The notes: generated by a model not told the origin, from the letters alone. DNA of 64,000 nt from Escherichia coli (GCA_025336685.1 GCA_025336685.1_4717.1); one strand, 5' to 3'; counted from the first letter of the stretch, positions 5,725 through 64,000 are shown. Numbers and translations: made by a program.

Positions 5725-5740
5725 TATTCACTGCATAAAC

Positions 5741-5772
5741 CCCTCTCCCTTCCCTGATGGGTTGGGAGAGGG
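5741..5772. terminator. Family hairpin CCCTCTCCCTTCCC-TGAT-GGGTTGGGAGAGGG at a convergent junction
   Basis: 14-nt arms with a TT/TT mismatch; between 4105..5724 (+) and 5779..6846 (-). Confidence 0.55.
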
Positions 5773-6846: not shown

Positions 6847-6928
6847 CACGTCCTCCTGAAAAAGAAAAAAGAAATACGGCATAAAGCCTACCCACACAAT
6901 GGTGGGTAGGCTAAGATCAACATCGATG

Positions 6929-7441
6929 TTAAACTTCTTCGTTTTCTGAACCTAATGATTCAGCATCTGGATCGTCAACAGGAATTGTTGCGTCAAAATA
7001 CCGTTTCGTATGCGTGGTCGTATATCCTACACTATCTGTGATGGAAATCGTAAACGTGACTTCTCTCGCACGGATTAAGCGTAGTTTATTCATGAAGTTA
7101 CGGAACGGCATCGATCCCCGATTCAACTCCTTAATGACGTTTCCTCGAATACTGGAAATGTCTTTATTCGTTTTATCAGGATGTCGTTTCTTCACATCAC
7201 GCATATGTCGGGTAATATACGAATTGAGCTGATTTGCGCCGATCCCTCTCTCCGTATAAATCTGCAACAGGAACTCCGTAAGGAAATCCTGTCTACCCGT
7301 AGGCGTCCAGAAATTGTTACCGTGATTGTAGTTAGTCGCTCGTCCTCGATTACTTTGAGGATTTTCATCATCGTTTTCGTCACAACGCTTAAGCGGATTA
7401 ATGCGTGCTCGGAAAGAGACTTCATTATATTTATTTGTCAT
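6929..7441 (-). CDS. Hypothetical protein (start moved to ATG at 7441)
   Basis: ATGA stop/start overlap with the upstream gene 7438..7953 suggests translational coupling. Confidence 0.5.
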   Translation of the reverse strand: MTNKYNEVSFRARINPLKRCDENDDENPQSNRGRATNYNHGNNFWTPTGRQDFLTEFLLQIYTERGIGANQLNSYITRHMRDVKKRHPDKTNKDISSIRGNVIKELNRGSMPFRNFMNKLRLIRAREVTFTISITDSVGYTTTHTKRYFDATIPVDDPDAESLGSENEEV

Positions 7442-7953
7442 AATACACCAGTGTACTGACTGAGTGCGAAGGTTAGGAGTTCGCAACAGTCTCTCGCTAG
7501 TTTCCTTGTTTTGCGTAATCCATAAGCCGCATCCAAATCGTCACGTTCTGCCAGCGCGTCTAACCACGTCGCAAGTATGCGTCCATACTCGATAACGTCA
7601 CGCATGAGAACGTCGAACTGGATAACACGACCATCGGCATCAGCAAGCCAACGATTGAATGTGATTTGTGGTGCTAGTATTGCATATGTTCTCTCCTCTA
7701 ATGCTATTATGTTTATGTTGCCTTCGTTATCGAACGCTTGATGCCAACGGCGAAGGTCAAGCATCAACGACTCAGCGTCCATATACCACAACGGTAAATA
7801 CGTTTTACGTGCAACGCGTATATCGTAGATGTTGTGAACCCAGGACGTTGTTTTATAAAGCAACAAGAGTTCGTTTAACCGTTGCCTATCATCTTGAAAC
7901 GTCTTCCTTTTATAACGTTGGAATGCACGCCTCAAGAAAAAGCGATGTAACAT
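7438..7953 (-). CDS. Hypothetical protein (171 aa)
   Basis: ORF in a co-directional minus-strand block; divergent from 8087..8716. Confidence 0.5.
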   Translation of the reverse strand: MLHRFFLRRAFQRYKRKTFQDDRQRLNELLLLYKTTSWVHNIYDIRVARKTYLPLWYMDAESLMLDLRRWHQAFDNEGNINIIALEERTYAILAPQITFNRWLADADGRVIQFDVLMRDVIEYGRILATWLDALAERDDLDAAYGLRKTRKLARDCCELLTFALSQYTGVL

Positions 7954-8033
7954 GGCATCACCTATGTATCATTCTTGCAGGCATCAATGAAACCATCACA
8001 AGAAGGTAACGTTATACGTCGCCTCCATGACAG

Positions 8034-8054
8034 TCATCATGAAGGTAATATAGT
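8034..8054 (+). promoter_or_regulatory. Conserved 21-mer CATCATGAAGGTAATATAGTC (candidate promoter), about 32 nt upstream of the 8087 start
   Basis: Identical 21-mer recurs at 35790..35810; contains a TATAGT (-10-like) hexamer with ATGACA 16 nt upstream at this site. Confidence 0.45.
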
Positions 8055-8086
8055 CCTGTTATTTTTTTCAATACGGAGAATGTAAA

Positions 8087-10113: not shown

Positions 10114-10788
10114 TTAGCCCTCATCAAGGTTATTCTGGAGATGCATTGCGGTGAGAATAACACCAACTGCCGAAACCGATTTTGCCTTGCTGTCTTCGGG
10201 TAGCTGTTCCAAGCTTACGGTACCTGTTTCTAACAGCATGCGGTTCATCGCGTTGAACTTCTTATCGTCGCCACCACGAGCCTGCATTAACTCTCGGTTC
10301 ACGTTCGGCATCGATCGTCCTAACGTCGCTTGCATTTCCGGCTGACTCCAAGTGGAACCTTTACTATCACCCGTCGGCTGATTGGTGAGCTGGTCCTTGG
10401 TGTTGTTGTTTTTCGGAATCGATATTTTAGCACTCAACGTTTCGGCTTGTCGGCGGTTTGGAATCAGGTACAATCTGGTTGGACGATCACGAAGCACCAA
10501 TTGTCCTGTTTTCTGATCGGTGAGATAAACGCGTTGGAAGAAAGGGAAACCGTATTTCTTGCCGACTTCCAGTGCGCGTTTTATCGTCACCTCGTTTTTG
10601 TTCATATTGGGTACCCAGATGGGTAGAATCTCTTTCTTATCCCGACATAAACGCATATACGCATCAAACGTCTCATCATCGATTTCAGCAAAACGTTTTT
10701 TGTAAATAGCGTAGGTCGGACTCGATCCCCCCACCAGGTCTTTGATATACCCAAGAATGAATTTTTCTGCTGCAGCGCGGTTGGACAT
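10114..10788 (-). CDS. Hypothetical protein (224 aa)
   Basis: Tightly packed minus-strand ORF; no motif recognised. Confidence 0.5.
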   Translation of the reverse strand: MSNRAAAEKFILGYIKDLVGGSSPTYAIYKKRFAEIDDETFDAYMRLCRDKKEILPIWVPNMNKNEVTIKRALEVGKKYGFPFFQRVYLTDQKTGQLVLRDRPTRLYLIPNRRQAETLSAKISIPKNNNTKDQLTNQPTGDSKGSTWSQPEMQATLGRSMPNVNRELMQARGGDDKKFNAMNRMLLETGTVSLEQLPEDSKAKSVSAVGVILTAMHLQNNLDEG

Positions 10789-14537: not shown

Positions 14538-15980
14538 TCAGACTCGCGATATGTTACCGCGTACGCTTTCGTTTCCGGCGATGCTAAATAGCTCAAGTTC
14601 AGACGTTGAGGCAGGTCTAACCCTACGACATGGTACAAGACGTAACACCCTGCTTATCGGGGTCAGTCTGTAATTCACGTCCACCTTCAAGCTTTTCGTA
14701 ACCTGCGTAATCGCACTATGCACTTTGGTAACCGTTTTACCTTTCTTATCCTTTTCTGTTTCGAAAAGAACGTCGGTAATTTCGGTTACGACCAGACGCG
14801 GTGTGGATTCGCGGTTAGCGTCAAGCCATTCATCCAGTAACGTCTTTAAGAAGTTCAAGGAATCAATCGCACGCCAAGCAAGGTTAGGCGGATTGCATGC
14901 TTCCATTAAAATGGCTGTGTTCGATCCACCTAGCGGAAGATGCACGCTCTTACCGAGGCCTGTCGGACGCATCGTAAGATCGCACTCACCCTCAAGAATA
15001 TCGCGATGATGTTGACGATGATGAAGGTTATCCGTGTATGCGATATACACTGACTCCGTTGTCCCATGCTCTAATACCCGAGATGCATGCGTACGCATAA
15101 TCTCAATAGCATCATCCGGCTTGCTTAAATAGATAACACTGTACGCGCTATCGCTAATCCTTTTCCCTAACTCAAGACGTCCCTTGTTGTCTTTATCGGT
15201 GTTACCACCGAAATAGATGTAGCGACCATCTTTCGCACGCTCTTGCTGCTGATTGGTGGTAAAGTAGCAGCGCGAGAACGTAAAGAACGGACTTATTTCC
15301 GGTTCGGGACTCCAATACCCCTTAGCCGGAAGTTCGCGACGTATTTGGGTTCTTACAGCCCAGTCCTGGTTTTGTGATAGATATGTTCCACGCGTTGCCA
15401 ACATATCCGCACGTTCGTTACCAACATTGCCCTCATGTCCAGGAACGTAACGCAGCGAAATATCGATAGCGTCGCGCTTCGCATCCCTTATCGCACTATC
15501 GAGTTTCCGCCACCGTTCCGCATTCATTAACGGTTTATTGTCGGATTTAACCCAGTTGTTCTCTCGCCAGTTAGCAAGATGGTTGGTGGCACCTACAACA
15601 ACATATTGGCTGTCCGACAACAGCTGGATCCGTTTTGCCCCCTTTGCTTTTCCAAGTTCAATCGCACGTATTGCAGCATCCAACTCAGCCTGATTGTTCG
15701 TTACGTTGAAACCCAAAGCCTCTAACTCATCCACGTATTCCTTGGGTTCGACCAGCACAGCGTCTTTAGGAAAGTTGAGTTTAGGGTCAACATAACCGTA
15801 TTGTGTTGGTTTGGGCTTTCCACTTTTTGAAGGTTCCAAGGTGCCTTTTATTTCTTTCACCATATCGTAGGTGTAGCCATGCACGCCATAGCCACCATAC
15901 CCACTCGATGTTGGACGGGATCCTCCATCACAGTAGAAAACGGCACCAAGCTCAGTATTTCCTGCCATTGTAAACCTCAT
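14538..15980 (-). CDS. RNase H (RNase HI-like) domain protein with about 250 aa C-terminal domain of unknown function
   Basis: Catalytic-site pattern: FYCDGGS (Asp), NNQAELDA (Glu), LLSDSQYVV (Asp), VPGHEGNVGNERADMLA (His/Asp). Confidence 0.65.
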   Translation of the reverse strand: MRFTMAGNTELGAVFYCDGGSRPTSSGYGGYGVHGYTYDMVKEIKGTLEPSKSGKPKPTQYGYVDPKLNFPKDAVLVEPKEYVDELEALGFNVTNNQAELDAAIRAIELGKAKGAKRIQLLSDSQYVVVGATNHLANWRENNWVKSDNKPLMNAERWRKLDSAIRDAKRDAIDISLRYVPGHEGNVGNERADMLATRGTYLSQNQDWAVRTQIRRELPAKGYWSPEPEISPFFTFSRCYFTTNQQQERAKDGRYIYFGGNTDKDNKGRLELGKRISDSAYSVIYLSKPDDAIEIMRTHASRVLEHGTTESVYIAYTDNLHHRQHHRDILEGECDLTMRPTGLGKSVHLPLGGSNTAILMEACNPPNLAWRAIDSLNFLKTLLDEWLDANRESTPRLVVTEITDVLFETEKDKKGKTVTKVHSAITQVTKSLKVDVNYRLTPISRVLRLVPCRRVRPASTSELELFSIAGNESVRGNISRV

Positions 15981-18600: not shown

Positions 18601-18633
18601 CCCTCCTCCTTCCCATGTTGGGTTGGAGGAGGG
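18601..18633 (+). terminator. Hairpin CCCTCCTCCTTCCC-loop-GGGTTGGAGGAGGG, member of a recurring hairpin family
   Basis: 14-nt arms with a central TT/TT mismatch, immediately after the stop of 17968..18594. Confidence 0.55.
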
Positions 18634-18647
18634 TTATGCCGTCAAGC

Positions 18648-19857: not shown

Positions 19858-20423
19858 TAGTCGGCGAGCGGTTTCACCTTATTAATGGGTAACTGTACTT
19901 TACCGATGTTCTCTACATCCGCATCAGCGTAGAGAACGATTTTATCGTCGTCTCTTTCCCAACGTATAATAAATCGACCAGGAAGAAGATTACCCTGTTC
20001 AAGAGATGCTGTAACCTGTTGTGTTAAAACAGACAACCAAGCAGGCATCAGTGTTGCAATATCTAAGTCATTTGACCACTCAGCACGTTGCTCCACTGGA
20101 CGCAACATACGTTGGACGGTGCGTTGAACTGTTGCGGTGATATAGCCTTTATCTTCGTCACTGATTGGATCCGGACGAGACACGAAACGTTCAGCAGGCT
20201 TACGGGAAATATGTTCATGTAGTTTGATGAGTGGTGTTGTCATAGTACTCGCTCCATCAGAATGTAATTGGGTAACCCGCAGGGTTGTCTGCATGTTATT
20301 CAGAAGCGCAAAAGCGCCATAAACAACAACGATACCAAGTACAGCCAAAACAGAAATCATTAACGTGTATTGCATTGTCATCTTCCCCTCATACGCATCT
20401 TGAAGATTAGTTAAAAACAACAA
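19848..20423 (-). CDS. Predicted membrane protein (N-terminal transmembrane segment)
   Basis: Hydrophobic stretch LMISVLAVLGIVVVYGAFALL; short overlap with the downstream gene. Confidence 0.45.
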   Translation of the reverse strand: MLFLTNLQDAYEGKMTMQYTLMISVLAVLGIVVVYGAFALLNNMQTTLRVTQLHSDGASTMTTPLIKLHEHISRKPAERFVSRPDPISDEDKGYITATVQRTVQRMLRPVEQRAEWSNDLDIATLMPAWLSVLTQQVTASLEQGNLLPGRFIIRWERDDDKIVLYADADVENIGKVQLPINKVKPLADYWA

Positions 20424-20470
20424 AAGAAAAAACGATATAAAGCAAGGTCCTCTGATATCAGAGGACCTTG
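20411..20470 (-). terminator. Rho-independent terminator (minus strand): perfect 28-nt palindrome followed by a T-rich tract
   Basis: CAAGGTCCTCTGATATCAGAGGACCTTG at 20443..20470; minus-strand T-rich run corresponds to plus-strand 20411..20440. Confidence 0.6.
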
Positions 20471-20476
20471 GATCAA

Positions 20477-21160
20477 TTAGCTTGCAGCATCTTCATTTGT
20501 ATCAGGTTTGCTTCCCCCTAACAAACCGTCAAACAGACCTGTATGTTTCAGGTAGAAGATAGCGATAGCGCCCATCGCTGCTGCGCTCGTCGCCGTTAAC
20601 GCAACCCCAGCACGATACTGCCATTTACGGTCAGGCTTTTGATCAAGCGCCATACGACGCATGTATTCAGCCTCTGCTTCATTCCGATGAATTTCGGATT
20701 CGGCCAGACGGGCTAAGGTATCGCGGTCAAGGTTATCATAACGTACGTTCATGGAAGTTTCCTCTTGTTTGGAAGTTGATTGCTTAGTGGATTCTTGGTC
20801 AACAGTCGTTTCAGTTGGTTCAAACGGCTGGTTGTTCATTTTCTGATCTTTATTGGTCATGATAGACTCCTTCGATTTTTGAGACGAAATTGATTTAAAC
20901 CATCGTGGATGGCGGTATTCGGTTTTACATGTACAGTTAAGTTTCTCGTGCATGAAAGCGTAAAAACGTTTTGCACCTACACGTAAGGCTTTCAGCATTA
21001 TCCATCCACGAGCACTCAAACGGTGTAGCTGTTGCGGTATGTCGAGTTTCCTAGCCAAGCGAAAGTATCTCTCAATCACTTCGATAGGAAACCATTGTTG
21101 TTCCGCATCGGTGAGACTGAAAGTCTTATCCATGATTGAAATCTCGCTGGCTTGCTTCAC
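20477..21160 (-). CDS. Hypothetical protein with C-terminal transmembrane segment
   Basis: C-terminal hydrophobic stretch VALTATSAAAMGAIAIFYL; acidic/Ser-Thr-rich middle. Confidence 0.5.
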   Translation of the reverse strand: MKQASEISIMDKTFSLTDAEQQWFPIEVIERYFRLARKLDIPQQLHRLSARGWIMLKALRVGAKRFYAFMHEKLNCTCKTEYRHPRWFKSISSQKSKESIMTNKDQKMNNQPFEPTETTVDQESTKQSTSKQEETSMNVRYDNLDRDTLARLAESEIHRNEAEAEYMRRMALDQKPDRKWQYRAGVALTATSAAAMGAIAIFYLKHTGLFDGLLGGSKPDTNEDAAS

Positions 21161-21178
21161 CTAGGTAATATAGCCGTG
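21161..21178 (+). promoter_or_regulatory. Promoter-like motif CTAGGTAATATAGCCGTG in a divergent intergenic region
   Basis: Shares the AGGTAATATAG core with the 21-mers at 8034 and 35790; lies upstream of the plus-strand gene 21283..22104. Confidence 0.35.
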
Positions 21179-21282
21179 AAAAAAGTTGGATTAAGTTAAA
21201 TACCGCAACCTAACTAATTTTATAGGCCTACAGCCTAAACCAATCATCTTCGAAATCATCATCTACGAAACAGGAACCTATC

Positions 21283-22104
21283 ATGGAAAAAGTATTTGTT
21301 TGTAAGCTGTTTACTAACGGCAATAGCCAACCAATGTATCTGACCGATCCGGTTCTGGGTAATCGGAACAGTACTGTATTCAAAGAAGCTATCGAATACG
21401 CTAAAAATAAAGCCGTGAGAACACTGACGTCCGATGACTGTATCAATGGTATCACGTGGGCAGAGTTATTAGGTGATGCTGTTAGACACTTCGTTCGGGA
21501 TGCAAGAAAACAGGAAATCAGCCTCACGACCATTGTCGTGCGCGAAAACGCAGAAATTTTATCAAACGTTTTAGTTGATTTTAATGACGTTTACGTGTTT
21601 AATCCAGAGAACACTTTTGAACAATACCTTGCCGCCCTGAACAAACAGCTCGGTAAAGATGTTCATCCCGAATTCGCCAAGTTAACGTATCAAGTACTTT
21701 TTGACGACGTCGATCCGAATACGAAGATCAGCACCCGCTTAAACTGCCAGATAAAGAAATACGGATCGGTTCTTGCTACAGCGACACCTACCATCGATGG
21801 CGGTTATGATATCGAATTGGATTCTCCATTAAAAGAACAAGAACCTACTGGGGTTCGGGCAATACATCATACCCTCGTCGTTAAATCCGATGGTTGTGAT
21901 GAACATTACGCTATGACAAACGATGAAAATAATCACCGTTTAAGTCAAGCGATCGGTGTTCTACGTTATACCGAACCAACCACTGTAGACGATTATACTT
22001 CGACAACAACGCACACCACGTGTTTCATTTTCATTTATCCAAATGAAAGTGTGTACATTACTGACTGCTACGGCAACACGGTAGATAGCTTACGTCGTTA
22101 TTAA
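21283..22104 (+). CDS. Hypothetical protein (273 aa)
   Basis: ORF followed by a canonical terminator. Confidence 0.5.
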   Translation: MEKVFVCKLFTNGNSQPMYLTDPVLGNRNSTVFKEAIEYAKNKAVRTLTSDDCINGITWAELLGDAVRHFVRDARKQEISLTTIVVRENAEILSNVLVDFNDVYVFNPENTFEQYLAALNKQLGKDVHPEFAKLTYQVLFDDVDPNTKISTRLNCQIKKYGSVLATATPTIDGGYDIELDSPLKEQEPTGVRAIHHTLVVKSDGCDEHYAMTNDENNHRLSQAIGVLRYTEPTTVDDYTSTTTHTTCFIFIYPNESVYITDCYGNTVDSLRRY

Positions 22105-22110
22105 TCATGG

Positions 22111-22138
22111 AGCCTGTCCTTCGGGGCAGGCTTTTATG
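22111..22138 (+). terminator. Rho-independent terminator (GCCTGTCC-TTCG-GGGCAGGC + TTTTAT)
   Basis: 8-bp GC-rich stem, TTCG tetraloop, T-tract; immediately after the stop of 21283..22104. Confidence 0.65.
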
Positions 22139-22205
22139 CTGTTAAATATCAGGAATAAGAATTAACAAAATAGGAAAATGGTGTGAATATAACACAAAGG
22201 AGGGA

Positions 22206-22328
22206 GATGATTATGTTACTCATTCTAATGGAGAGAGCATTGCTGGCGGGTATATGCGCATTCTCTGTTAAACACGCTGTTGCTATCATGACTGAAGAAA
22301 GGCGTAATACGCATAATGTATTACGCTG
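22206..22328 (+). CDS. Small hydrophobic protein (40 aa), below the ORF-track size cut-off
   Basis: ATG with strong Shine-Dalgarno AAGGAGGGAG upstream; fills the gap before 22335; encodes MIMLLILMERALLAGICAFSV... Confidence 0.35.
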
Positions 22329-22334
22329 AAAACA

Positions 22335-22748
22335 ATGTCTGCATTAGTGTATGACGAGAAATCGTCGAGGCCCCCGTCTTCACGAGGGCCAACACCTATG
22401 CGCGACTATTTACCATCTACGAAACAAAGGGTTATAAACATGAGCAATTTGAATGTTGAATTTACTTCAACAACGCCCGTCATGAATGGCGTTGGTACTG
22501 AAACTAAGATCGTATTAGAACCCATCCCGGGGTTACGTGATCTCGGTGATTTTTACCAACTGATGCCACGTATACGTAACGCCTTAAACAGTATCGATCT
22601 TGATTCTGATAAAGATTTCCAACACGATACAGAAAATACCGATCATGTGTTGCTACCATCAGGGATCGGAAAATTCACCTACACGCAAACATTGAAAGCC
22701 TCCGATGGTGAAATCCGTCGTTTTATTGTTGAAGTAGAAAGCGCATAA
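22335..22748 (+). CDS. Hypothetical protein (137 aa)
   Basis: ORF followed by a family hairpin at 22753..22784. Confidence 0.5.
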   Translation: MSALVYDEKSSRPPSSRGPTPMRDYLPSTKQRVINMSNLNVEFTSTTPVMNGVGTETKIVLEPIPGLRDLGDFYQLMPRIRNALNSIDLDSDKDFQHDTENTDHVLLPSGIGKFTYTQTLKASDGEIRRFIVEVESA

Positions 22749-22752
22749 AAAC

Positions 22753-22784
22753 CATCCTCCCAACCCGTAAGGGAAGGGAGGATG
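22753..22784. terminator. Family hairpin CATCCTCCCAACCC-GTAA-GGGAAGGGAGGATG at a convergent junction
   Basis: 14-nt arms with a single AA/AA mismatch; between convergent genes 22335..22748 (+) and 22802..23443 (-). Confidence 0.55.
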
Positions 22785-22801
22785 AAATATGCCGTTATAT
22801 G

Positions 22802-23443
22802 TTATTCAACAAATCCCGCGTTCAACAAATTGTCGTAAACACGATTAGCGACATCAACAGGAGAATGTGTGTTACTGGTGTCTATACACAACGTTTTCGC
22901 GTCGCCGAGATAGTCCATAAAATCCATGTAACGATAACGTCGTTTATTGAATGTCGCTTCATCGATGTTATCAAACATCTGATGTTTAGCGTGTCGAACA
23001 CGGAATCGCCTTAAATACGTAGGATAGTCAATATCCAGATAAACGTAGTAAGACGGCATGATAATCGACGGTAGGTTCGGCAACAACGCATCAAACAGCT
23101 TAACGTTGGCATCATTAACCTGATAAACGTACGTCGAAGCAATCGAACGATCGCTAAGCACAGTCTTCCCTTCGTTAAGGGCTGGATGAATCACCTTATT
23201 GAAGAGATGATTACGTTGCGACATCATCGCCAACAGTTCAGTTTCTGGATCGAATCTGTTCGTTGGCGTCTGATCTTCCAGGATAAGTTTACGAATCGCT
23301 TCTCCGTAGAGTGTACCACCGGGTTCACGTACGACGCAGACGTTGTTTAAACGACTGTGTAAAGACGAGATAACCGAACTCTTTCCTGAATAATCCAGAC
23401 CTTCAATAACGATATATTTATTACGAGACATTCCCCGCTCCAA
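22802..23443 (-). CDS. tmk: Thymidylate (dTMP) kinase
   Basis: N-terminal KYIVIEGLDYSGKSS P-loop, REPGGT and DRSI(A)S motifs match the bacterial Tmk pattern (KYIVIEGLEGAGKTT ... REPGGT ... DR). Confidence 0.75.
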   Translation of the reverse strand: MERGMSRNKYIVIEGLDYSGKSSVISSLHSRLNNVCVVREPGGTLYGEAIRKLILEDQTPTNRFDPETELLAMMSQRNHLFNKVIHPALNEGKTVLSDRSIASTYVYQVNDANVKLFDALLPNLPSIIMPSYYVYLDIDYPTYLRRFRVRHAKHQMFDNIDEATFNKRRYRYMDFMDYLGDAKTLCIDTSNTHSPVDVANRVYDNLLNAGFVE

Positions 23444-23447
23444 TTAA

Positions 23448-24629
23448 CTATTTCGTTTTCGCCGTCAACGGTTGCGATACCGTAATCTCGACACGATTCT
23501 CATCGGTACGTTTAACGATGATAAGGCTGCGTTCATCACCGAATGGTGCTGCTACCTCGGAAGCCTCTTTAAGATTTTCAAGAATCTCACCGAAAGCTTC
23601 AAATACCGCAAAACCAGAGCTAACATCAATTCTTACTAAATGTACACACACATCGTTTACGGTAACGGTGTCATCCGTCTTGAACCCGCAACAGGAGGGT
23701 AGACAGAACTGACCGTCAGCGCAATTAGCTAGGCATGCCTCGCCACCGAACATTTCTATTAACGTCACCGGTTTAAATGTTTTCTCTGGGAAAGCGCTAT
23801 TAAGGGTATCGTTTCCATTCACGAACCAGATCGTTACTTTATCTTCAGAATACACCAGCCGGTACGGTTGGGTTGCGGACGCTTGCGCTTTATGCTGGTT
23901 AAATAACTTTGATTTTGTCGCAATCACAGCACGACCTTCGGCGTCGAAGTACAGAACTTCATACCCAACACATCCGATAAACACACGACGGTTATTAAGT
24001 TCCGGAATTCTGACTAATAATGCTTCACCGTTGTATCCGGTAGGAACAATACCACGTAGGATGATAGATTCATTGTTCAATACCGAGTTGTCTGCAGTGA
24101 TACTTCGCATTACCGCTGGCGTCACTATTTTATCTGCGGTAGGTTCAGGTTGCTCAGCAATGCGGTCAAAAGGTTCGATGGATACCATGGGAACGAAGTA
24201 TTCAACTATATACTTGTTTTCAGCACCAACGTCCATGACGGTGATCTGCAAACGCGTAGCATCCGAATTCAATGCTTGTCTCACACGTTCCGCATTAGGA
24301 GTATCGCGGTCAATATGAATCAAGGCTTTTACCACACCGTCGTCTTCCAACCATCCTGTTAAAACGCGACCGACGATATCATTCACGTCACGAATCGGGA
24401 AGCACACTTCAGCGCCATCGAGCACCGCTACGATTTTACTGCTAATGACGGGCACCTTACCGTCGTTAAGATGTGCCAACAGACCGGTTAATGCATCTTC
24501 ACTAACCGGATATTTTGTCGTCGTACTGACCACCGGTATGATAAAACGATCTTCGCCGTATTTCTCTGCACCACAGATAACCGGGACTTGAGGACATTGA
24601 TCAACTAGGCCCCATTCAACAGTAATCAT
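23448..24629 (-). CDS. Hypothetical protein (393 aa) with C-terminal Cys-rich cluster
   Basis: Six cysteines within about 25 residues (CLANCADGQFCLPSCCGF...C) suggest a metal-binding site. Confidence 0.5.
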   Translation of the reverse strand: MITVEWGLVDQCPQVPVICGAEKYGEDRFIIPVVSTTTKYPVSEDALTGLLAHLNDGKVPVISSKIVAVLDGAEVCFPIRDVNDIVGRVLTGWLEDDGVVKALIHIDRDTPNAERVRQALNSDATRLQITVMDVGAENKYIVEYFVPMVSIEPFDRIAEQPEPTADKIVTPAVMRSITADNSVLNNESIILRGIVPTGYNGEALLVRIPELNNRRVFIGCVGYEVLYFDAEGRAVIATKSKLFNQHKAQASATQPYRLVYSEDKVTIWFVNGNDTLNSAFPEKTFKPVTLIEMFGGEACLANCADGQFCLPSCCGFKTDDTVTVNDVCVHLVRIDVSSGFAVFEAFGEILENLKEASEVAAPFGDERSLIIVKRTDENRVEITVSQPLTAKTK

Positions 24630-34926: not shown

Positions 34927-35709
34927 TCATGCGAACGTTTCTCCTGTAACGTGTTGTGGGCGTTGTAGCATGGTAGCATCCCATTGTACGATCCGGCTCC
35001 GGCTTACCCGCATCATGACGGATTCATCGTCAAGCCCCGGTTGCGCAACCGGCAACCAACGTTCGTTAAGCACCTTCGCTTCAACCCGTTTCTTGCGTGG
35101 GTTGTAACGCACCTCGCTAACCCAAGCGAATCCAAGCGGATGCACAACCCGTGGATAATACGTGCGAAGCAATTGATGCATCCGATCCAGTACCTCCAAG
35201 CTCGCATCGGCCATGTATGGTTTCACCATGGTAAGCTTTTTGGTGTAATACGTCCCAACGGTATGGTTCGCCCACCCGGGAAGCACGTGATGGAATCCTA
35301 CCTGTAATTGTGTATTGCCGTTCACCTTCAGCCAACCGTATTGTCCAGCCGCACGTCCCTCGTCAGTATCGATCCATGTAAGTATATCGATGAACGCACG
35401 ATCGGTGATCTCGATGCGTTCCACCCGTTCATCCAACGCACCACGTACCACGAATCCGCTCGCGCTCACCCGCGCAGGATGCTGGCTGCGATGCGCGTAC
35501 CAATTCTTGTTGCCGGTAAGCAGGTAAGGGTACGTGTGAGCACCCCGCCAAACAACCGTTCCGTTCGTCCCATCAACACAGTGTACATACATCCCATCTT
35601 GACCGTTGTTGTAGCATGCTACCTTCACGCATTCGTTTTGAACATCGCTCGGTAACGCCAGGTATTCACCTTCGGTAAACATGGTATCAAAAATGATTTC
35701 TTCGTTCAT
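34927..35709 (-). CDS. Paralogue family B protein (3 of 3), divergent N-terminus
   Basis: C-terminal VHPLGFAWVSEVRYNPRKKRVEAKV aligns with VHPLGYALVYDVRWNTNLQTVEVKI of 32870..33703. Confidence 0.55.
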   Translation of the reverse strand: MNEEIIFDTMFTEGEYLALPSDVQNECVKVACYNNGQDGMYVHCVDGTNGTVVWRGAHTYPYLLTGNKNWYAHRSQHPARVSASGFVVRGALDERVERIEITDRAFIDILTWIDTDEGRAAGQYGWLKVNGNTQLQVGFHHVLPGWANHTVGTYYTKKLTMVKPYMADASLEVLDRMHQLLRTYYPRVVHPLGFAWVSEVRYNPRKKRVEAKVLNERWLPVAQPGLDDESVMMRVSRSRIVQWDATMLQRPQHVTGETFA

Positions 35710-35789
35710 CTAAAAAGATCCTCTGTTTTTCACGTTAATTAAACAACGTATTGATTTCTATTTAACGCAATACGAACATCGTACGTATG

Positions 35790-35810
35790 CATCATGAAGG
35801 TAATATAGTC
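35790..35810 (+). promoter_or_regulatory. Conserved 21-mer CATCATGAAGGTAATATAGTC (second copy)
   Basis: Exact 21/21 identity with 8034..8054; sits at the left edge of the AT-rich region, pointing into it. Confidence 0.4.
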
Positions 35811-36415
35811 GTGAAAGGATTTGCATTAAAGCAAGGGTAATTGTTTTGTTTTAAGAAGGGATGGATGATAGCGGTATCTGAAAGGAGAAGGATTTTAAGG
35901 AAGGTCTTGATTGAAGTAAGTGAAGAGGATGATTATTTCGGTTTAAGTAAGTAGGTAAGTTATCGTGTTATTGTTTTTTGTCTTAATGGTTTTATCGTTT
36001 TATCTGTTGTTTATATAAATCAAATTAAATTATAAAGTCAGTTAAGATGTTGGTTAACAACGTTCAACTCAAAAAACCATTTGTGATACTCTTCTTCACG
36101 TTGTTCATCAGAGTATCTCGTCTATACTCATTGCATTCGTATACGACATAACCGTTATACGCTAACGCTACGCTTATAGCTTGATAACTCTAAGGATAAA
36201 AACATAAACTCGCTTCGCTCGTTTAGTTTTTCTTTTTCTTAGAGTTATCCTGTTGCTCGTCTCTAAAGGACTTCGCTCCTCCCCCGTCCCCCGAAGGGGC
36301 CGAGGTCGTGGAAATTTTACTTTCCAAATACATTTACAACATCTGTAAACTTTTACTCCAGGTACTTAATCTTATCATTAGAAATTATAAAGAGAAGAAT
36401 AAACACAAACATAAA

Positions 36416-36447
36416 CCTTCCTCCAACCCAACAGGGAAGGAGGAAGG
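36416..36447 (-). terminator. Family hairpin CCTTCCTCCAACCC-AACA-GGGAAGGAGGAAGG after the stop of 36461..37354
   Basis: 14-nt arms with one mismatch; on the minus strand it is followed by a T-rich run. Confidence 0.55.
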
Positions 36448-36460
36448 GATACAATGGTTA

Positions 36461-48373: not shown

Positions 48374-48405
48374 CCCTCCTCCTTCCCTTACGGGTTGGAG
48401 GAGGG
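48374..48405. terminator. Family hairpin CCCTCCTCCTTCCC-TTAC-GGGTTGGAGGAGGG at a convergent junction
   Basis: Arms identical to the 18601 copy; between 47083..48363 (+) and 48415..49320 (-). Confidence 0.55.
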
Positions 48406-48414
48406 AATATGCTG

Positions 48415-49320
48415 TTATGCCACGTATAACGTTAGATAACCGTCGATGAGCGTATTCATAACACTGAGTTGAAGTACAACAGCTTTACGAGCGTCTGTAC
48501 GTACACCAAATGGTAGTGTTTTGAAATGCTCTGGATCGGCTATTACTCTCGCATTCTGCAAGTTGAGCGGTCCAGGCGTTGCCGACAATACCCAGCGATC
48601 GTTGGCCGTAAGACCATCGATCTCTTCAGAGAGACCCAATTGCAGCATGTTCATTTCTGCAATTAGCGCCTCTGATTGCATATCACCTGAGGTTAACGTA
48701 TACCCATCAGTAAGTGACGCTAGAACATCATCAGACATGAACCAGTTGTACGAAACAATAGCGCCCGGGAGTTTATCACTATCTCGATCGATGAGATAAT
48801 TCAACCCAGCCAACATATTGTTGCGAATGAGGTTGTTGAGGTCGTTATGTCCTGAAGTTAACTCAACAAGTAATTGACCAACCCATACTTGGTTACCAGG
48901 TTTAGGTGTTATCGCAACATGTATCGGTGATTTGGATTTATCCAGATCCGCGTCGACAATCTCGGTTTTATTGAGAAGGATACCGTACGTTGATGCTAAG
49001 ACAGGTAATATCTCAGAGACCTTGGTTAGTGTATCTAAGGTTTCGATCTCGATGGGCCAGCGGTGCTGTCCGCCAGGCCAAATACCCAGTTTACCAAGAT
49101 CGACGCGGTTATAATAGATGTCGACAGAGTTCACCAGCCCTGAACCCGGTTGGGGATGCACGGTTAACTTGCTGTTACGCTTGTACCCTGTGCTTTCAGA
49201 AGCCTCACCGATAACCAGTTTATCCAGCGTTACGCCTCGAGCGTCGAAATCGCTATGCTTTCGAATCAGCCGAAAGAGGATTTCTTTCGATTCTAACCCT
49301 AGGATTTCACTGTACTCCAT
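48415..49320 (-). CDS. Putative structural protein, paralogue family C
   Basis: IYYNRVDLGKLGIW and QVWVGQLLVEL motifs align with the other family members. Confidence 0.5.
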   Translation of the reverse strand: MEYSEILGLESKEILFRLIRKHSDFDARGVTLDKLVIGEASESTGYKRNSKLTVHPQPGSGLVNSVDIYYNRVDLGKLGIWPGGQHRWPIEIETLDTLTKVSEILPVLASTYGILLNKTEIVDADLDKSKSPIHVAITPKPGNQVWVGQLLVELTSGHNDLNNLIRNNMLAGLNYLIDRDSDKLPGAIVSYNWFMSDDVLASLTDGYTLTSGDMQSEALIAEMNMLQLGLSEEIDGLTANDRWVLSATPGPLNLQNARVIADPEHFKTLPFGVRTDARKAVVLQLSVMNTLIDGYLTLYVA

Positions 49321-49545: not shown

Positions 49546-49614
49546 CCCAATTTCAGAAATAACCGCGCAGTACTCTTCAATTACCCGGAGAGTTTAGCCA
49601 CATTGAGATATTCG

Positions 49615-50220
49615 TTAATATCCTGATGGTGTCCAGACCAAAGAGACTCCAGCTATAATCGTAGTACTTCCGGTCGCTACCAGAATTCCTGTTGTTGGAA
49701 TATCCGGTCGGGGCGGGTTGAGGTTCTTGTCGGTCGGATGCCATTCGATAGTCTGAGCAACACCATCGATGTACTTGGTATATCGCATGGAGCGGACAAC
49801 GTTATCGAAATCGATGCGACGACCGTAATAACAGATGTACTTTTTACCGTTTTCCAGCGTCTCAATACGACGTAACCCAAATCTAGCACGTTCGTCCGTG
49901 GTCAAATCGTTACCAACTTCACGCATCACGAAAGGTTTGATTTTCCATGGTGAAAGATCGCTTGCTTCGTGAGCGATCGGCATCGAGGAAGGGATGCCGT
50001 TAGCGTTGCGGATGAATTCGTGACCTTGGTTGCCGATACAGAAGTAACGTACAGCAGGATTACCCTCGGGGTAAATCTTTGATTGAATCTGAAGCTTTTC
50101 GTTCAAGGTGCTGTGTTCTTCCCACGCATGAGGAAGACCGAGCGTAAGGTTCGTTTGTACTTGACCGCCGATAATCGTACGGACGATACGATCGGTAGCA
50201 CGGATTTGTGTAGAAGCCAT
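49615..50220 (-). CDS. Hypothetical protein (201 aa)
   Basis: ORF in the co-directional structural block. Confidence 0.5.
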   Translation of the reverse strand: MASTQIRATDRIVRTIIGGQVQTNLTLGLPHAWEEHSTLNEKLQIQSKIYPEGNPAVRYFCIGNQGHEFIRNANGIPSSMPIAHEASDLSPWKIKPFVMREVGNDLTTDERARFGLRRIETLENGKKYICYYGRRIDFDNVVRSMRYTKYIDGVAQTIEWHPTDKNLNPPRPDIPTTGILVATGSTTIIAGVSLVWTPSGY

Positions 50221-60453: not shown

Positions 60454-62250
60454 TCAATCGATTATGTCACGATCGTTAATTTCTACAATTTCTTCATCGA
60501 ATCGACCGACGTCTTTCTTCAAGCCTGCATTTGTTGCTGCAACGTCATTTGCGATTTGTGGGGTAACGATTAACCGACCACGCTCATCGATAGGTGCGTA
60601 CATACTGAACTTCTGACGTCCGGTTGGTTCGGAGTGTGGAAGATTCAGATAGCTTGCACAGAACGGGATGGAACCACTAACCAAACGACTCTCGTCAGCC
60701 AATGCAGCACCGCCTGCGTTTTGGCTCTGGAGAACAACATGCGTGCTCACTTTGAACAGCATGCAATCACCAGGTGACTGAATCGATGTTGCCACTTTCT
60801 CACGTTTATCACGATTGCTCTGGATATTGAGAATCGCTTCCGTTGCAACTTGATTTCGCAACGCCTTCTGTACATCGCGATTGGTCATCTCTTTACGGTT
60901 GTTCTGTCGTTTACCACGTTCCGTGGTTTTAAGATGGAACCCCAGTTTAAAGATGCTTTTACGCACATCCTCCATGACATATTCCAACACCATCAATTCC
61001 TTACCGAACATCGTCGTGGTATCAACACGACTCATTTCGATAGTAACATTGTCAATCAGATACGCCATAAATTCGTAGAAGTCGTCGCAAGGAATATTTT
61101 CCTGTTTGAACTTCTTCTGTTGAATTTCGTCAACGTAAAGATCGAGACTGTCGATGTGGTGGTTTACATCACGCAACAAACGCGCATCCGCATTGTTGTT
61201 ATTAAAGATAATCAAACCGAGTAATGTACGCCAATGGTCTGGCGCATTCGCGAACTCTTCAACCGGATAGTCTTCCGGGAAACGATCGTAATAACGGTCG
61301 ATGAGATATAAGAACGCACCGACAAGGCCAAGAACAATACGTTCCGTACCTCCACGTCTTACAGCGATTTGAATATCAGGATGTTTATAACGTACAGCGT
61401 TAGCGCTACGGCTTTTACCGCTTTTGCTGATACTAAAGCCTTTAGGAATAACCCCCATGGTGCGATAGATTACCCATTGGTCGCGCGGAAAATCACGTTC
61501 AGCAAGGTTCCGTCCGGTTACGGCTTCGACACCTGCAAAACGTCGGAAACATTCACCCACCCCATACTTCGCAAAGAGATAATGACCCAGTGTGGTTACG
61601 CTGGTGTGGTTGATGTTGTCACCGTTCACTTTACTTTGTTTGGTAAGATGATAGATTTGCGACCAGGGTAACGACAGATAATGACGATAATCGATACCCG
61701 TTGGTGTATCATTGCTCAGGAACTGATACGGTGTACGTTTAACCGTGATTTTGTCACGCGGAAGCATGATGAACGCCATGTCTTTCGTGTAACTGATTAC
61801 AGGGTCAGCGAGCACCGCACTGAGAATGAAGTTCGCACCACGTAGACGCATTTTACCACCCTGACCTACTGCGGGCAATAGGAGAGGATGTCGGATAATG
61901 CAGTAGTCCTTTCCCGGCTCACGGCGGTCACCTGATTCCATCGCACCGTACCAGCGGAATTCTAGCATCACCATAAACACGTCGGAAGGTGCAAGGTCGA
62001 AGGTCAGCTTACCGCTATCCTTCCCTTTGGTTTTCTTTCCTCCGCTTAAGTAGTGGAACTGTTCGCGGGCCATACAACGACGTAGGCCATGATACACCAG
62101 ATCCTTAGGTAAACTATCTTTGCTGTTCCGCCAAAGACGATCAACATAGGACTCAACATCTTGCATCTTATCGACGACGATGTTGCGTGCTATCTTCTCG
62201 TTCATCTTCGGTGCAAGCTCAGCGACAGCTTTGCAGAATCTAGGATCCAT
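60454..62250 (-). CDS. Hypothetical protein (598 aa)
   Basis: Long ORF; no motif confidently recognised. Confidence 0.5.
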   Translation of the reverse strand: MDPRFCKAVAELAPKMNEKIARNIVVDKMQDVESYVDRLWRNSKDSLPKDLVYHGLRRCMAREQFHYLSGGKKTKGKDSGKLTFDLAPSDVFMVMLEFRWYGAMESGDRREPGKDYCIIRHPLLLPAVGQGGKMRLRGANFILSAVLADPVISYTKDMAFIMLPRDKITVKRTPYQFLSNDTPTGIDYRHYLSLPWSQIYHLTKQSKVNGDNINHTSVTTLGHYLFAKYGVGECFRRFAGVEAVTGRNLAERDFPRDQWVIYRTMGVIPKGFSISKSGKSRSANAVRYKHPDIQIAVRRGGTERIVLGLVGAFLYLIDRYYDRFPEDYPVEEFANAPDHWRTLLGLIIFNNNNADARLLRDVNHHIDSLDLYVDEIQQKKFKQENIPCDDFYEFMAYLIDNVTIEMSRVDTTTMFGKELMVLEYVMEDVRKSIFKLGFHLKTTERGKRQNNRKEMTNRDVQKALRNQVATEAILNIQSNRDKREKVATSIQSPGDCMLFKVSTHVVLQSQNAGGAALADESRLVSGSIPFCASYLNLPHSEPTGRQKFSMYAPIDERGRLIVTPQIANDVAATNAGLKKDVGRFDEEIVEINDRDIID

Positions 62251-62289: not shown

Positions 62290-63723
62290 TTACTTTTTCG
62301 ATGACGCCTTCTCAAGAATCTTGAAAAAGGTCATACCTATACCGACAACAGCCGCGGTTATACTCGCAGCGGCTTTCCAAACATCGACGTTACGTTGACG
62401 TCGTGCTTCTTCCGCTTCACGTTGTCTTTTTGCCTCTTCATCACGTCGACGTATCTCAGCAGCAAACTCGTCATGCTTACGTTTGGCTTCTTCGTCTCGA
62501 CGACGAAGTTCAGCGACGAATTCTTCATGTTTGCGTTTAGCCTCATCATCACGACGTTTTAAATCAGCTTGATAATCTTCGTGTATTTGTCTACGTAGAT
62601 CATCTTGACGTTTCATTTCGGCTTGGTGTTGTTCCATCCTACGTTTTTGTTCGTCTTTAAGCTGATCGAGTTCGGCTTTATGTTGTTCGTCGCGCAGCTT
62701 TGCGTCGGCGCGATGCGCTTCATGCATCTGTGCGATAACTGCCTTGTGTTCATCCGCCATACGTCGCATTTCAGCCATCACCCCTTTAAGGGTTTCTTCT
62801 GACGACTTACGTTCGTAGCTGCGTTGGTCGAAATCATTTTTGTAGGCTTCTTTTTGGATGGGATCGCGCCAATGCAATGCCGATTCACGCGTCGGAAAAA
62901 CATTGTACTTCCACATCTCTTTTTCCAAATCTTCGACCGGTACGAAGATGGAGTCATTATTCCCGAAGGTAACCAACATACCTGGCGCGCCTGCTCCATT
63001 CGTTGGTTTTATTTCGAACGCTTTCCCCAGCACGTTAACCCATAGGCTATACGGATTATGAAAGTCGGGTGGCGTCCAGTGGATAGTGAGTTGCGTTCCG
63101 AGAATCCGGAAACCCTCTGTCTTTCCTGTTAAACTACGCGCACATGTTGCGATGTAGGGGTGATCAATCCCTTTCGTAACATGGTCTGCGCTTTTGTATT
63201 CTCCTTTAACTTTTACGATTGCCACGTTGATTTGCGCGACATAAATAGGTTGATTAAAGTTCAACGTGTTGAGGTCAATTTGACATATCTCGTCCAGCGT
63301 ATCGTACCAGTCTTGCTGGTCTAATAGACGCGGTATTTTCTCTGTGTTAACGATGCGACGGATATGCGGTTTCCTTATCGCGTAACCTGTACCATTTTTA
63401 ACACGGAGTATATCCCGACGTCTACCCGCGTAGACGAAGTTTCTGAATGCACCATTCGCATTAGATACGTCATGGCTGTCAACTATTACAGGACTACGAA
63501 ATTTTGAACGTCGTACGATCCTGAATGTATTACTGTCCTCAACTCTACCAGGAATGTACTGGAACATATTGTCGGAGGTGATAACCAACACGGTATGGCC
63601 GGATTCATTAATACATGCCCACCCTAATTCCAGGTCATACAACGGTTCAGCATAACCGTCAATGCGATATGCGTACCATCCCCACGGTTCGAACGCGGTA
63701 TCACATATTGGCATGGAGGGCAT
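62290..63723 (-). CDS. Hypothetical protein with charged tandem repeats and C-terminal transmembrane anchor
   Basis: Three 19-aa RRRDEEAKRKH(D/E)EF(A/V)AE(I/L) repeats, then hydrophobic AAASITAAVVGIGMTFFKIL at the C-terminus. Confidence 0.5.
   Translation of the reverse strand: MPSMPICDTAFEPWGWYAYRIDGYAEPLYDLELGWACINESGHTVLVITSDNMFQYIPGRVEDSNTFRIVRRSKFRSPVIVDSHDVSNANGAFRNFVYAGRRRDILRVKNGTGYAIRKPHIRRIVNTEKIPRLLDQQDWYDTLDEICQIDLNTLNFNQPIYVAQINVAIVKVKGEYKSADHVTKGIDHPYIATCARSLTGKTEGFRILGTQLTIHWTPPDFHNPYSLWVNVLGKAFEIKPTNGAGAPGMLVTFGNNDSIFVPVEDLEKEMWKYNVFPTRESALHWRDPIQKEAYKNDFDQRSYERKSSEETLKGVMAEMRRMADEHKAVIAQMHEAHRADAKLRDEQHKAELDQLKDEQKRRMEQHQAEMKRQDDLRRQIHEDYQADLKRRDDEAKRKHEEFVAELRRRDEEAKRKHDEFAAEIRRRDEEAKRQREAEEARRQRNVDVWKAAASITAAVVGIGMTFFKILEKASSKK
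62385..62555 (-). repeat. Three imperfect 57-bp tandem repeats encoding the charged 19-aa repeat
   Basis: Units around 62387-62439, 62440-62495 and 62496-62549 share TCATCACGTCGACG...TTCTTCATG...GCGTTT words. Confidence 0.5.
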
Positions 63724-63876
63724 CGCTCACCTCCATCAGATTGAAAATTATCATGCATAACGCATTTCCCTTTTCTTGTTCTTATCAAACTGACAGCCGA
63801 CGGTTTCCAGTATCGCCCCCAGCGCGAGAACGACCTTACGTGTTGTCTATGCCTTATTAATCGCAGGCTTCTGTCA

Positions 63877-63895
63877 CCTAGGTAATGTAAGCGTC
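63877..63895 (+). promoter_or_regulatory. Promoter-like motif CCTAGGTAATGTAAGCGTC, related to the 21161 site
   Basis: Shares TCACCTAGGTAAT with 21156..21170; lies in the region upstream of the 62290..63723 start. Confidence 0.3.
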
Positions 63896-64000
63896 AAATT
63901 TTTTCTATTCGCAACGATAAACGGCATAAATCTCCCCCAACCCTTACGGGCTGAGGGAGGCTGACTTATGTATCACGGTGCCGGATGAATGTCCGCAATG

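Follow-up and report, generated by a model that had tools for sequence, protein, structure and literature searches.

The question raised by this locus is what a short promoter-like sequence near position 21161 of a 64,000-nucleotide stretch of DNA (the window) represents, and what is meant by its resemblance to a second site near 63877. A sequence-only reading of the window had taken the motif on the plus strand, had noted that these two sites share an extended prefix which is lacking from a related pair at 8034 and 35790, and had proposed that the pairs are two subclasses of the same element, possibly serving different temporal classes. We put the probability at roughly 0.88 that the sequence in question, when read on the other strand, is an early promoter from a Goslar-like, nucleus-forming jumbo phage (Chimalliviridae).

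The repeat itself is shorter than was first proposed. The 22-mer TCACCTAGGTAATATAGCCGTG is present in a single copy at 21157–21178 (plus strand), even when three mismatches are tolerated across the whole window, and the corresponding stretch at 63874–63895 reads TCACCTAGGTAATGTAAGCGTC, which is identical to it at 18 of 22 positions. What the two sites have exactly in common is the 13-mer TCACCTAGGTAAT, at 21157–21169 and 63874–63886, so the shared prefix holds for these 13 bases, with the full 22-mer being confined to the first site. At the 8034 and 35790 sites TCATGAAGGTAAT stands in place of TCACCTAGGTAAT, followed by ATAGTC(C/G)TG. Given that 155 pairs of exact direct 13-mers are present in the window (compared with approximately 38 in shuffles), the common 13-mer is unremarkable when considered alone, and its significance must come from its context. 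That context lies on the minus strand, where the reported motif becomes CACGGCTATATTACCTAGGTGA, containing TATATTAC, and the 13-mer becomes ATTACCTAGGTGA, which corresponds to positions -11 to +2 of an element of approximately 40 bp whose consensus is TAATnCAAAAnATTTCACGnCTAtATTACCTAnGTGA and whose core is TATATTAC. The family consensus over the same positions is ATTACCTAnGTGA, to which the 'prefix' TCACCTAGGTAAT is close; its exact recurrence at two sites thus reflects the fact that both copies lie near the family consensus, rather than their belonging to a separate subclass.

The origin of the DNA is informative as to which polymerase may be involved. Along its whole length, the segment from 20000 to 24000 shares 93.2% identity with Escherichia phage Goslar, a nucleus-forming E. 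coli jumbo phage with a genome of 237 kb. Goslar carries one multisubunit RNA polymerase within the virion (vRNAP) and makes a second, likewise multisubunit, after infection (nvRNAP). Goslar gp78, gp196, gp205, gp207 and gp210 are vRNAP subunits that have been detected in virions; gp196, listed amongst these subunits, has in addition been GFP-tagged in virions, and GFP-gp196 colocalises with the injected DNA. A homologue of gp196 is encoded in the window itself (10114–10788, minus strand; phrog_3233 'RNA polymerase beta subunit', E 1.2e-65), and the phage studied here therefore has the virion-packaged multisubunit RNA polymerase that is expected alongside a chimallivirus early promoter. The polymerase to which this subunit belongs is presumed to be the one that reads the promoters described below. 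RNA-seq of Goslar reveals chmA transcripts at 5 min and detects 175 of 249 genes at this time point.

In order to avoid circularity, we built a profile from sequence alone (R1) using 10 sites from the part of the Goslar genome that has no homologous sequence in the window. When run on the window with filters off, R1 recovered exactly four sites, all on the minus strand and scoring between 25.3 and 34.7 bits, with the next match at 6.7 bits (E 0.79). On the 237-kb Goslar genome it returned exactly 14 sites up to E = 10, again all on the minus strand, and these lie upstream of gp004, gp021, gp040, gp046/047, gp075, gp105, gp144, gp159, gp175, gp182, gp246, gp225, gp214 and gp200. The site at gp246 precedes chimallin, after which comes a gene for an RNAP subunit. 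Each of the 14 sites precedes a minus-strand start codon by 32–205 nt, and the annotation places 13 of them between genes; in the window, where only around 7% of the sequence is intergenic by a rough estimate, all four sites likewise precede a minus-strand gene, and so the element is both multi-copy and co-oriented with operons. A lack of enrichment of either variant upstream of genes in the complete genome had been named in advance as the outcome that would speak against the proposal of the sequence-only reading, and for the family as a whole the opposite is seen in Goslar. A chance repeat can also be dismissed for the family as a whole on the strength of the profile evidence (E 7e-10 and 2e-7 for the two sites in question). 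The core tells a similar story, with 10 copies of TATATTAC in Goslar, all on the minus strand, of which eight are intergenic and upstream of minus-strand genes. Further Goslar sites were added by degenerate patterns, and when 15 Goslar candidates are set beside the four sites of the window they align without gaps from the upstream region through the start region, giving the consensus TAATnCAAAAnATTTCACGnCTATATTACCTAnGTGAT; in this alignment A32, A34–C38 and T44 (T-1) never vary and G45 (+1) hardly does. One Goslar site (49714–49755) falls inside an annotated small ORF, gp047.

The reported site is the best R1 match in the window (34.7 bits, E 7e-10). It occupies 21156–21194 on the minus strand, has the sequence TTAATCCAACTTTTTTCACGGCTATATTACCTAGGTGAA, of part of which the 22-mer of the sequence-only reading is the reverse complement, and aligns without gaps to 14 Goslar sites, with an orthologous site present in Goslar and in two IMG/VR genomes. 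Its -10-like core TATATTAC (21165–21172, minus strand) spans -14 to -7 relative to the predicted start and is identical to the phiKZ early-promoter core (PMC7058600 Table 2). The spacing of the element places the predicted start at the G at 21158, 6 nt after TATATTAC, which would leave a 25-nt 5'UTR to the ATG at 21133. The site is intergenic between the divergent gp004 (minus) and gp005 (plus) genes, and the first gene after it (20477–21133, minus strand) encodes a 218-aa homologue of Goslar gp004 which is 97% identical to its relatives, has no known function and gave no Pfam or PHROG match.

The second member of the reported pair, at 63873–63909 (minus strand; AATAGAAAAAATTTGACGCTTACATTACCTAGGTGAC; 27.2 bits, E 1.9e-7), is invariant from around -35 to +6 in four genomes (the window's phage, Goslar and the two from IMG/VR). 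Its core is the variant TACATTAC at 63882–63889, and with a predicted start G at 63875 the 5'UTR would extend for approximately 150 nt to the start codon at 63723. This promoter is located between the major-head-protein gene and the gp040-like gene, both on the minus strand. The gp040-like gene (62290–63723, minus strand; 477 aa, function not known) is the first of an operon whose second gene (60454–62250, minus strand) encodes an nvRNAP subunit homologous to phiKZ gp123, matching PHIKZ123 (7OGP_E) by phmmer with E 1.4e-40 and phrog_2943 'polymerase' with E 5.5e-120; PHIKZ123 is one of the subunits in the phiKZ nvRNAP structure PDB 7OGP. Upstream, a terminator-type hairpin with a AUUUAUGCCGU tail (63917–63960, minus strand; 12-bp stem, -24.7 kcal/mol, z -4.27) separates this promoter from the major-head-protein gene, which lies past the window end. 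The hairpin is invariant in the four genomes and its tail matches the phiKZ terminator motif ...YTTATKYYGT; by ending read-through from the late major-head-protein gene, it would insulate the early operon.

The remaining two copies share the start region CTTCATGATG and are likewise on the minus strand. The promoter at 8035–8074 (25.3 bits, E 7.9e-7), with its core TATATTAC at 8045–8052 and a predicted start G at 8038, precedes a gp200-like gene of no known function (7438–7953, ATG at 7953) by a 5'UTR of approximately 85 nt. It is identical over the promoter in Goslar, where annotation places the 8045 site in intergenic DNA, although two annotated genes overlap at that locus. The promoter at 35790–35829 (30.6 bits, E 1.5e-8) has the core TATATTAC at 35800–35807 and a predicted start G at 35793, and would similarly give a 5'UTR of approximately 85 nt ahead of a gp021-like gene, again of no known function (34927–35709, ATG at 35709); its Goslar orthologue carries TACATTAC. 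An AT-rich core of around 10 nt near -10 is therefore found at all four window sites on the minus strand, its position being reckoned from the predicted starts. None of the four first downstream genes gave a Pfam match or an informative PHROG match. The same holds for the early promoters of phage 201phi2-1, behind which the first genes are also without assigned function (PMC11512511).

Read on the minus strand, the element has a TAAT at around -35 to -32, an A-rich segment, a T-tract that closes with TTTCA at -23 to -19, the -10-like core TA(T/C)ATTAC at -14 to -7, a loose 5-nt spacer and then T(-1), G(+1) and A(+2). Alignments of the window and Goslar sites show both upstream features, the TTTCA and the TAAT. 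The numbering depends on phage AR9, whose early promoters were located by dRNA-seq and primer extension and conform to AAATATATATTAT-(6N)-G in alignments from -50 to +1. The family described here follows TA(T/C)ATTAC-(6N)-G, with an invariant T directly before the G, and it is this shared spacing from which we infer the start at 21158, 63875, 8038 and 35793. The resulting positions agree with published -10/-20/-30 descriptions. Counting six bases past the core in the R1 matches of Goslar gives predicted starts there at 2553, 43252, 226681, 15053, 49718, 86691, 113783, 134248, 142786, 160777, 166055, 172964, 187625 and 201930. In the scheme that we propose, the virion-packaged multisubunit vRNAP, which is injected together with the DNA, would recognise the element, initiate at the G that lies six bases past TATATTAC, and then transcribe leftward, along the minus strand, into early-gene operons. 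By analogy with phiKZ, 201phi2-1 and AR9, we would expect the four operons in the window to depend on vRNAP and to be expressed early. Transcription by vRNAP is known to include the nvRNAP genes at the early stage, and the PHIKZ123 homologue behind the 63874 site fits such a scheme, in which the injected vRNAP transcribes genes for nvRNAP.

Comparison with other phages places the element within a recognisable type. All jumbo phages encoding RNAPs have an AT-rich motif of around 10 nt, centred near -10 and upstream of early operons, which has proved to be the early promoter wherever transcripts were profiled and which "must" be read by the vRNAP (PMC7598289). In phiKZ, the early motif consists of an extended -10 box with a T-rich element upstream of -19 (Wicke et al., PMC8244752), whilst the early promoters of 201phi2-1 are conserved at -10, -20 and -30 (PMC11512511). 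We ran R1 on positions 40000–75000 of phiKZ, and the three top matches were gapless (E 1.4e-4 to 3.7e-4) and directly upstream of PHIKZ054 (chimallin), PHIKZ058.1 and PHIKZ068 (the gene for gp68, an nvRNAP subunit). PHIKZ054 has an experimentally mapped primary start with the early motif (PMC8244752), and the match upstream of it means that orthologous chimallin genes in two genera have the element at an equivalent position; from the coordinates, a 5'UTR of 66 nt is predicted for chimallin in both Goslar and phiKZ. This in-register match between Goslar and phiKZ promoter sequences suggests that the interface between vRNAP and promoter may be conserved across the Chimalliviridae.

The two phages thus have in common the 8-bp core, a T-rich element that stops close to -19, an A-rich/TAAT region around -30 and a position upstream of co-oriented early operons that include chimallin and nvRNAP subunit genes. 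They differ in that the Goslar type has a G+C-richer linker (CACGnC, compared with GAGATT/CAGATT in phiKZ) and continues after the core with CCT or CTT, where phiKZ has TAA. Cross-genus R1 scores are also lower, at 16–17 bits compared with 25–35 within the clade, and phiKZ has 28–32 sites per genome against approximately 14 predicted in Goslar. The minus-strand motif also fits the extended promoters predicted for 201phi2-1 (TTTRARR_BTATATTACDWHDGTG), OBP and N1M2 (TTTYARRYAKATATTATYWWADTG) and EL (WTTTYAAACCTACATTATY) (PMC7058600 Table 2). These share with it a TTTYA-N5-(T)AYATTAY-N4-GTG architecture of the same spacing, conserved at -10, -20 and -30, and the TACATTAC variant at 63882 mirrors the ACATTAT of EL. 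They differ in host genus, in exact flanks and in the first base after the core, which is C here and A, G or T in those phages. In AR9, a Bacillus jumbo phage with a vRNAP, six bases separate the ATATTAY core from a G at the aligned +1; AR9 is not a chimallivirus, it has uracil DNA, and the upstream half of its promoter is merely AT-rich, without a TTTCACG element. Bacterial sigma-70 promoters of the extended -10 kind resemble the element in having an AT-rich, hexamer-like sequence around 10 bp ahead of the start.

Since the motif was originally read on the plus strand, a host sigma-70-type promoter needs to be considered, with TAATAT serving as a -10 box for rightward genes such as the ORF at 21283. 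GGTAATATAG does hold a 4/6 match to TATAAT, and two of the sites have a plus-strand gene to their right, starting after 105 nt (21283) and 40 nt (8087) respectively. Such a gene is nevertheless present at only two of the four window sites, compared with a minus-strand gene at four of four, and at 14 of 14 in Goslar. A consensus scan found no sigma-70-like sites on either strand at 21050–21350 and 63650–64000, and no -35/-10 pair here passes it. Conservation moreover runs for a further 25 nt or so on what would be the downstream side of a plus-strand -10, in register with the phiKZ early promoter. Phages of the phiKZ type transcribe without the host polymerase (PMC7598289), and the jumbo-phage RNAPs, unlike the sigma-70 system, are without sigma, alpha or omega homologues. 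We find this explanation barely credible. The element at 21157 and 63874 would drive the minus-strand genes starting at 21133 and 63723 and nothing rightward on the plus strand; the sequence-only reading was right to regard the motif as promoter-like, whilst the functional strand is opposite to the one that it read. A separate idea concerns the 8-bp palindrome ACCTAGGT which crosses the start and could act, on a subset of promoters, as the operator of a dimeric phage regulator or as a restriction/modification target. The palindrome is perfect at 21159–21166, at 63876–63883 and in the Goslar chimallin promoter, and the gp004 site of the relatives reads ACTTAAGT, which is also perfectly palindromic by virtue of two symmetric substitutions (CCTAGG to CTTAAG). 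At the local divergence of around 9%, however, one symmetric double transition would be expected by chance with a probability that we estimate at a few percent. Just three of the 14 Goslar promoters are palindromic, with the others breaking the symmetry, the phiKZ counterparts ACTAAATT, ACTAAGGT and ACTAACAT are not, and no regulator is known or was identified. An operator or modification target of this kind strikes us as highly improbable.

There is also the matter of whether the sites at 21157 and 63874 (CCTAGGTGA) and those at 8034 and 35790 (CTTCATGATG) form two functional subclasses of one promoter, used at different times of infection. The pairs differ consistently at -4 to -2 (AGG vs TCA) and in the first transcribed bases after +2, and the 8035 and 35790 sites have an exact common stretch of 21 nt, GACTATATTACCTTCATGATG; early transcripts in AR9 are also known to have diverse kinetics, with a possible 'pre-early' group. 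When scored with the single independent profile, however, all four sites are recovered and the pairs are interleaved (34.7, 30.6, 27.2 and 25.3 bits), and the distinguishing bases, at -4 to -2 and just past the predicted start, lie where the element is least conserved. In the 14 promoters of Goslar, positions -6 to -2 form a continuum that takes in CTAGG (gp040, chmA), TTAAG (gp004), TTAGG (gp105), TTACG (gp159, gp182) and CTTCA (gp200, gp021), as well as CTTAG, CTAGA, CTTTG, CTTCC and CTAAC, with CTAGG simply being the consensus. The orthologue of the 21157 site reads TATATTACTTAAGTGAAGT in Goslar and the two IMG/VR genomes, having TTAAG and not CTAGG, so that the exact 13-mer at the gp004 site is found only in the window's phage, compared with a 63874 site that is invariant in all four genomes. 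Overall similarity also cuts across the proposed pairs. Over 44 nt, the 21157 site is closest to 35790 (33/44) and matches its supposed partner at 63874 at 27/44, and the upstream halves group 21157 with 35790 (TTTCACGRC) and 63874 with 8035 (GAAAAAA). In those relatives that have been investigated by experiment, the middle and late classes rely on quite different motifs, which a second polymerase reads (PMC7598289). The temporal classes of phiKZ use unrelated motifs: middle promoters have an AT-rich/TACT motif near -22/-24, whilst late promoters, which the nvRNAP reads, have TATG at the start (PMC8244752, PMC7598289).

Discrete, conserved subclasses are thus not what we observe, given the Goslar continuum, the TTAAG in three relatives and the cross-cutting similarity, and the interleaved scores and the unrelated motifs of the phiKZ classes lend no support to a difference in timing. 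We regard two subclasses with different infection times as very unlikely; the four sites represent one promoter family, rather than a family accompanied by a variant whose timing differs. Certain copies may be connected by function or by history, since the 21-nt identity between 8035 and 35790 exceeds what the consensus would lead one to expect. We also considered whether the start-proximal variation (CTAGGTGA with ACCTAGGT, compared with CTTCATGATG), together with 5'-terminal hairpins beginning at the predicted +1, is functional instead of neutral, which we think is unlikely. If this were the case, the variation could tune the strength, the timing (immediate-early or delayed-early) or the shut-off of subsets of vRNAP promoters, either through an operator at the start site or through differential stability of mRNA 5' ends. 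A leaderless mini-ORF from the AUG at +2 in the CTTCATGATG pair was considered and rejected, as the Goslar gp021 orthologue reads GAUAGAU without an AUG and the codons are not conserved.

With regard to novelty, a literature search with the extended sequence strings returned unrelated primer matches only, and a Goslar-clade promoter motif was not found in the literature searched, in which the genome paper does not contain the word 'promoter' and the RNA-seq preprint contains neither 'promoter' nor 'motif'. The kind of element is well known, and the Goslar-clade version only extends a known rule to another genus. It does, though, yield an early-promoter consensus for the clade (TAATnCAAAAnATTTCACGnCTAtATTACCTAnGTGA, as given above) and a list of sites, four in the window and 14 in Goslar, which should aid operon annotation and which predicts the genes that the injected polymerase would reach first, including those for chimallin and nvRNAP subunits. 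It may also provide a portable early promoter for engineering chimalliviruses of E. coli, a use to which the phiKZ consensus early promoter has already been put. A final observation relates to the number of sites. Goslar has 14 detectable sites compared with the 28–32 early promoters of phiKZ, and yet 175 of its 249 genes are seen at 5 min, which may mean either that the operons are long or that weaker or different early promoters exist alongside those described here.

Compared with shuffled sequences, the predicted early transcripts fold more stably over their initial 40 nt (mean z about -1.3, n=14 transcripts), and in approximately eight of the 14 a hairpin starts exactly at the predicted +1 G, as exemplified by the hairpin GAUAACAG...CUGUUAUC (z -3.4). 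Folding 5' segments, all on the minus strand, are found at 35754-35793 and 7999-8038 in the window and at L002:49679-49718, L003:36652-36691 and L005:22925-22964 in Goslar (loci in local coordinates); these five are examples and further ones exist. Hairpins that begin at the predicted +1 may represent mRNA-stabilising 5'-terminal stem-loops. The start at Goslar 49718 belongs to an early-promoter match (L002:49714-49755, minus strand, 30.4 bits) which lies within the annotated 62-aa ORF gp047 (49584-49772). Given that this predicted start falls downstream of the gp047 start codon, gp047 may be mis-annotated, or the real ORF may be shorter than annotated.

Two of the window promoters, at 8035-8055 and 35790-35810 on the minus strand, share 21 identical nt, GACTATATTACCTTCATGATG, which is more than the family consensus would predict. 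The shared sequence suggests either duplication or conversion of the promoter, or a common functional variant.

Within the gp004 promoter, window 21159-21166 reads ACCTAGGT, whilst Goslar (L002:2554-2561) and two IMG/VR genomes carry ACTTAAGT. Each variant is a perfect 8-bp palindrome, and the two substitutions are therefore symmetric. This symmetry may be coincidental, with a chance of roughly a few percent at a local divergence of about 9%, as a rough estimate. Upstream of this promoter, in the divergent gp004/gp005 intergenic region, there is also a small hairpin at window 21208-21236 (columns 45-63 of A3, the alignment of the window with its relatives), in which the stem is kept and the loop varies (TAGGC-TGTAG-GCCTA in the window vs TAGGCT-AAA-AGCCTA in the relatives).

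Hairpins standing 3' of window gene ends were observed to have the tail (T)TTATGC(C/T)GT. One such hairpin with a terminator-like tail lies at 63917-63960 (minus strand), and similar tails occur at 5730-5747 and 6876-6893 on the minus strand and at 18625-18642, 22125-22142 and 48398-48415 on the plus strand. A simple T-run terminator scan did not pick up these hairpins in the window. Their tails are similar to the conserved motif of phiKZ intrinsic terminators, ...GGGRRGGBYTTATKYYGT (PMC10914365). This motif appears to be common to the Goslar clade and phiKZ. For the chimallin mRNA, Goslar (172964/172898) and phiKZ (locus L013, 5583/5649) have predicted 5'UTRs of equal length, 66 nt, but of unrelated sequence.

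Upstream of the gp021 early promoter, and flanked by two minus-strand genes, Goslar 14972-15825 forms an unusually long stretch (~850 bp) without an annotated gene, whose window counterpart lies at about 35830-36460. Between ~21.2 kb and 34.9 kb, the coordinate offset indicates that the window exceeds Goslar by roughly 2.1 kb.
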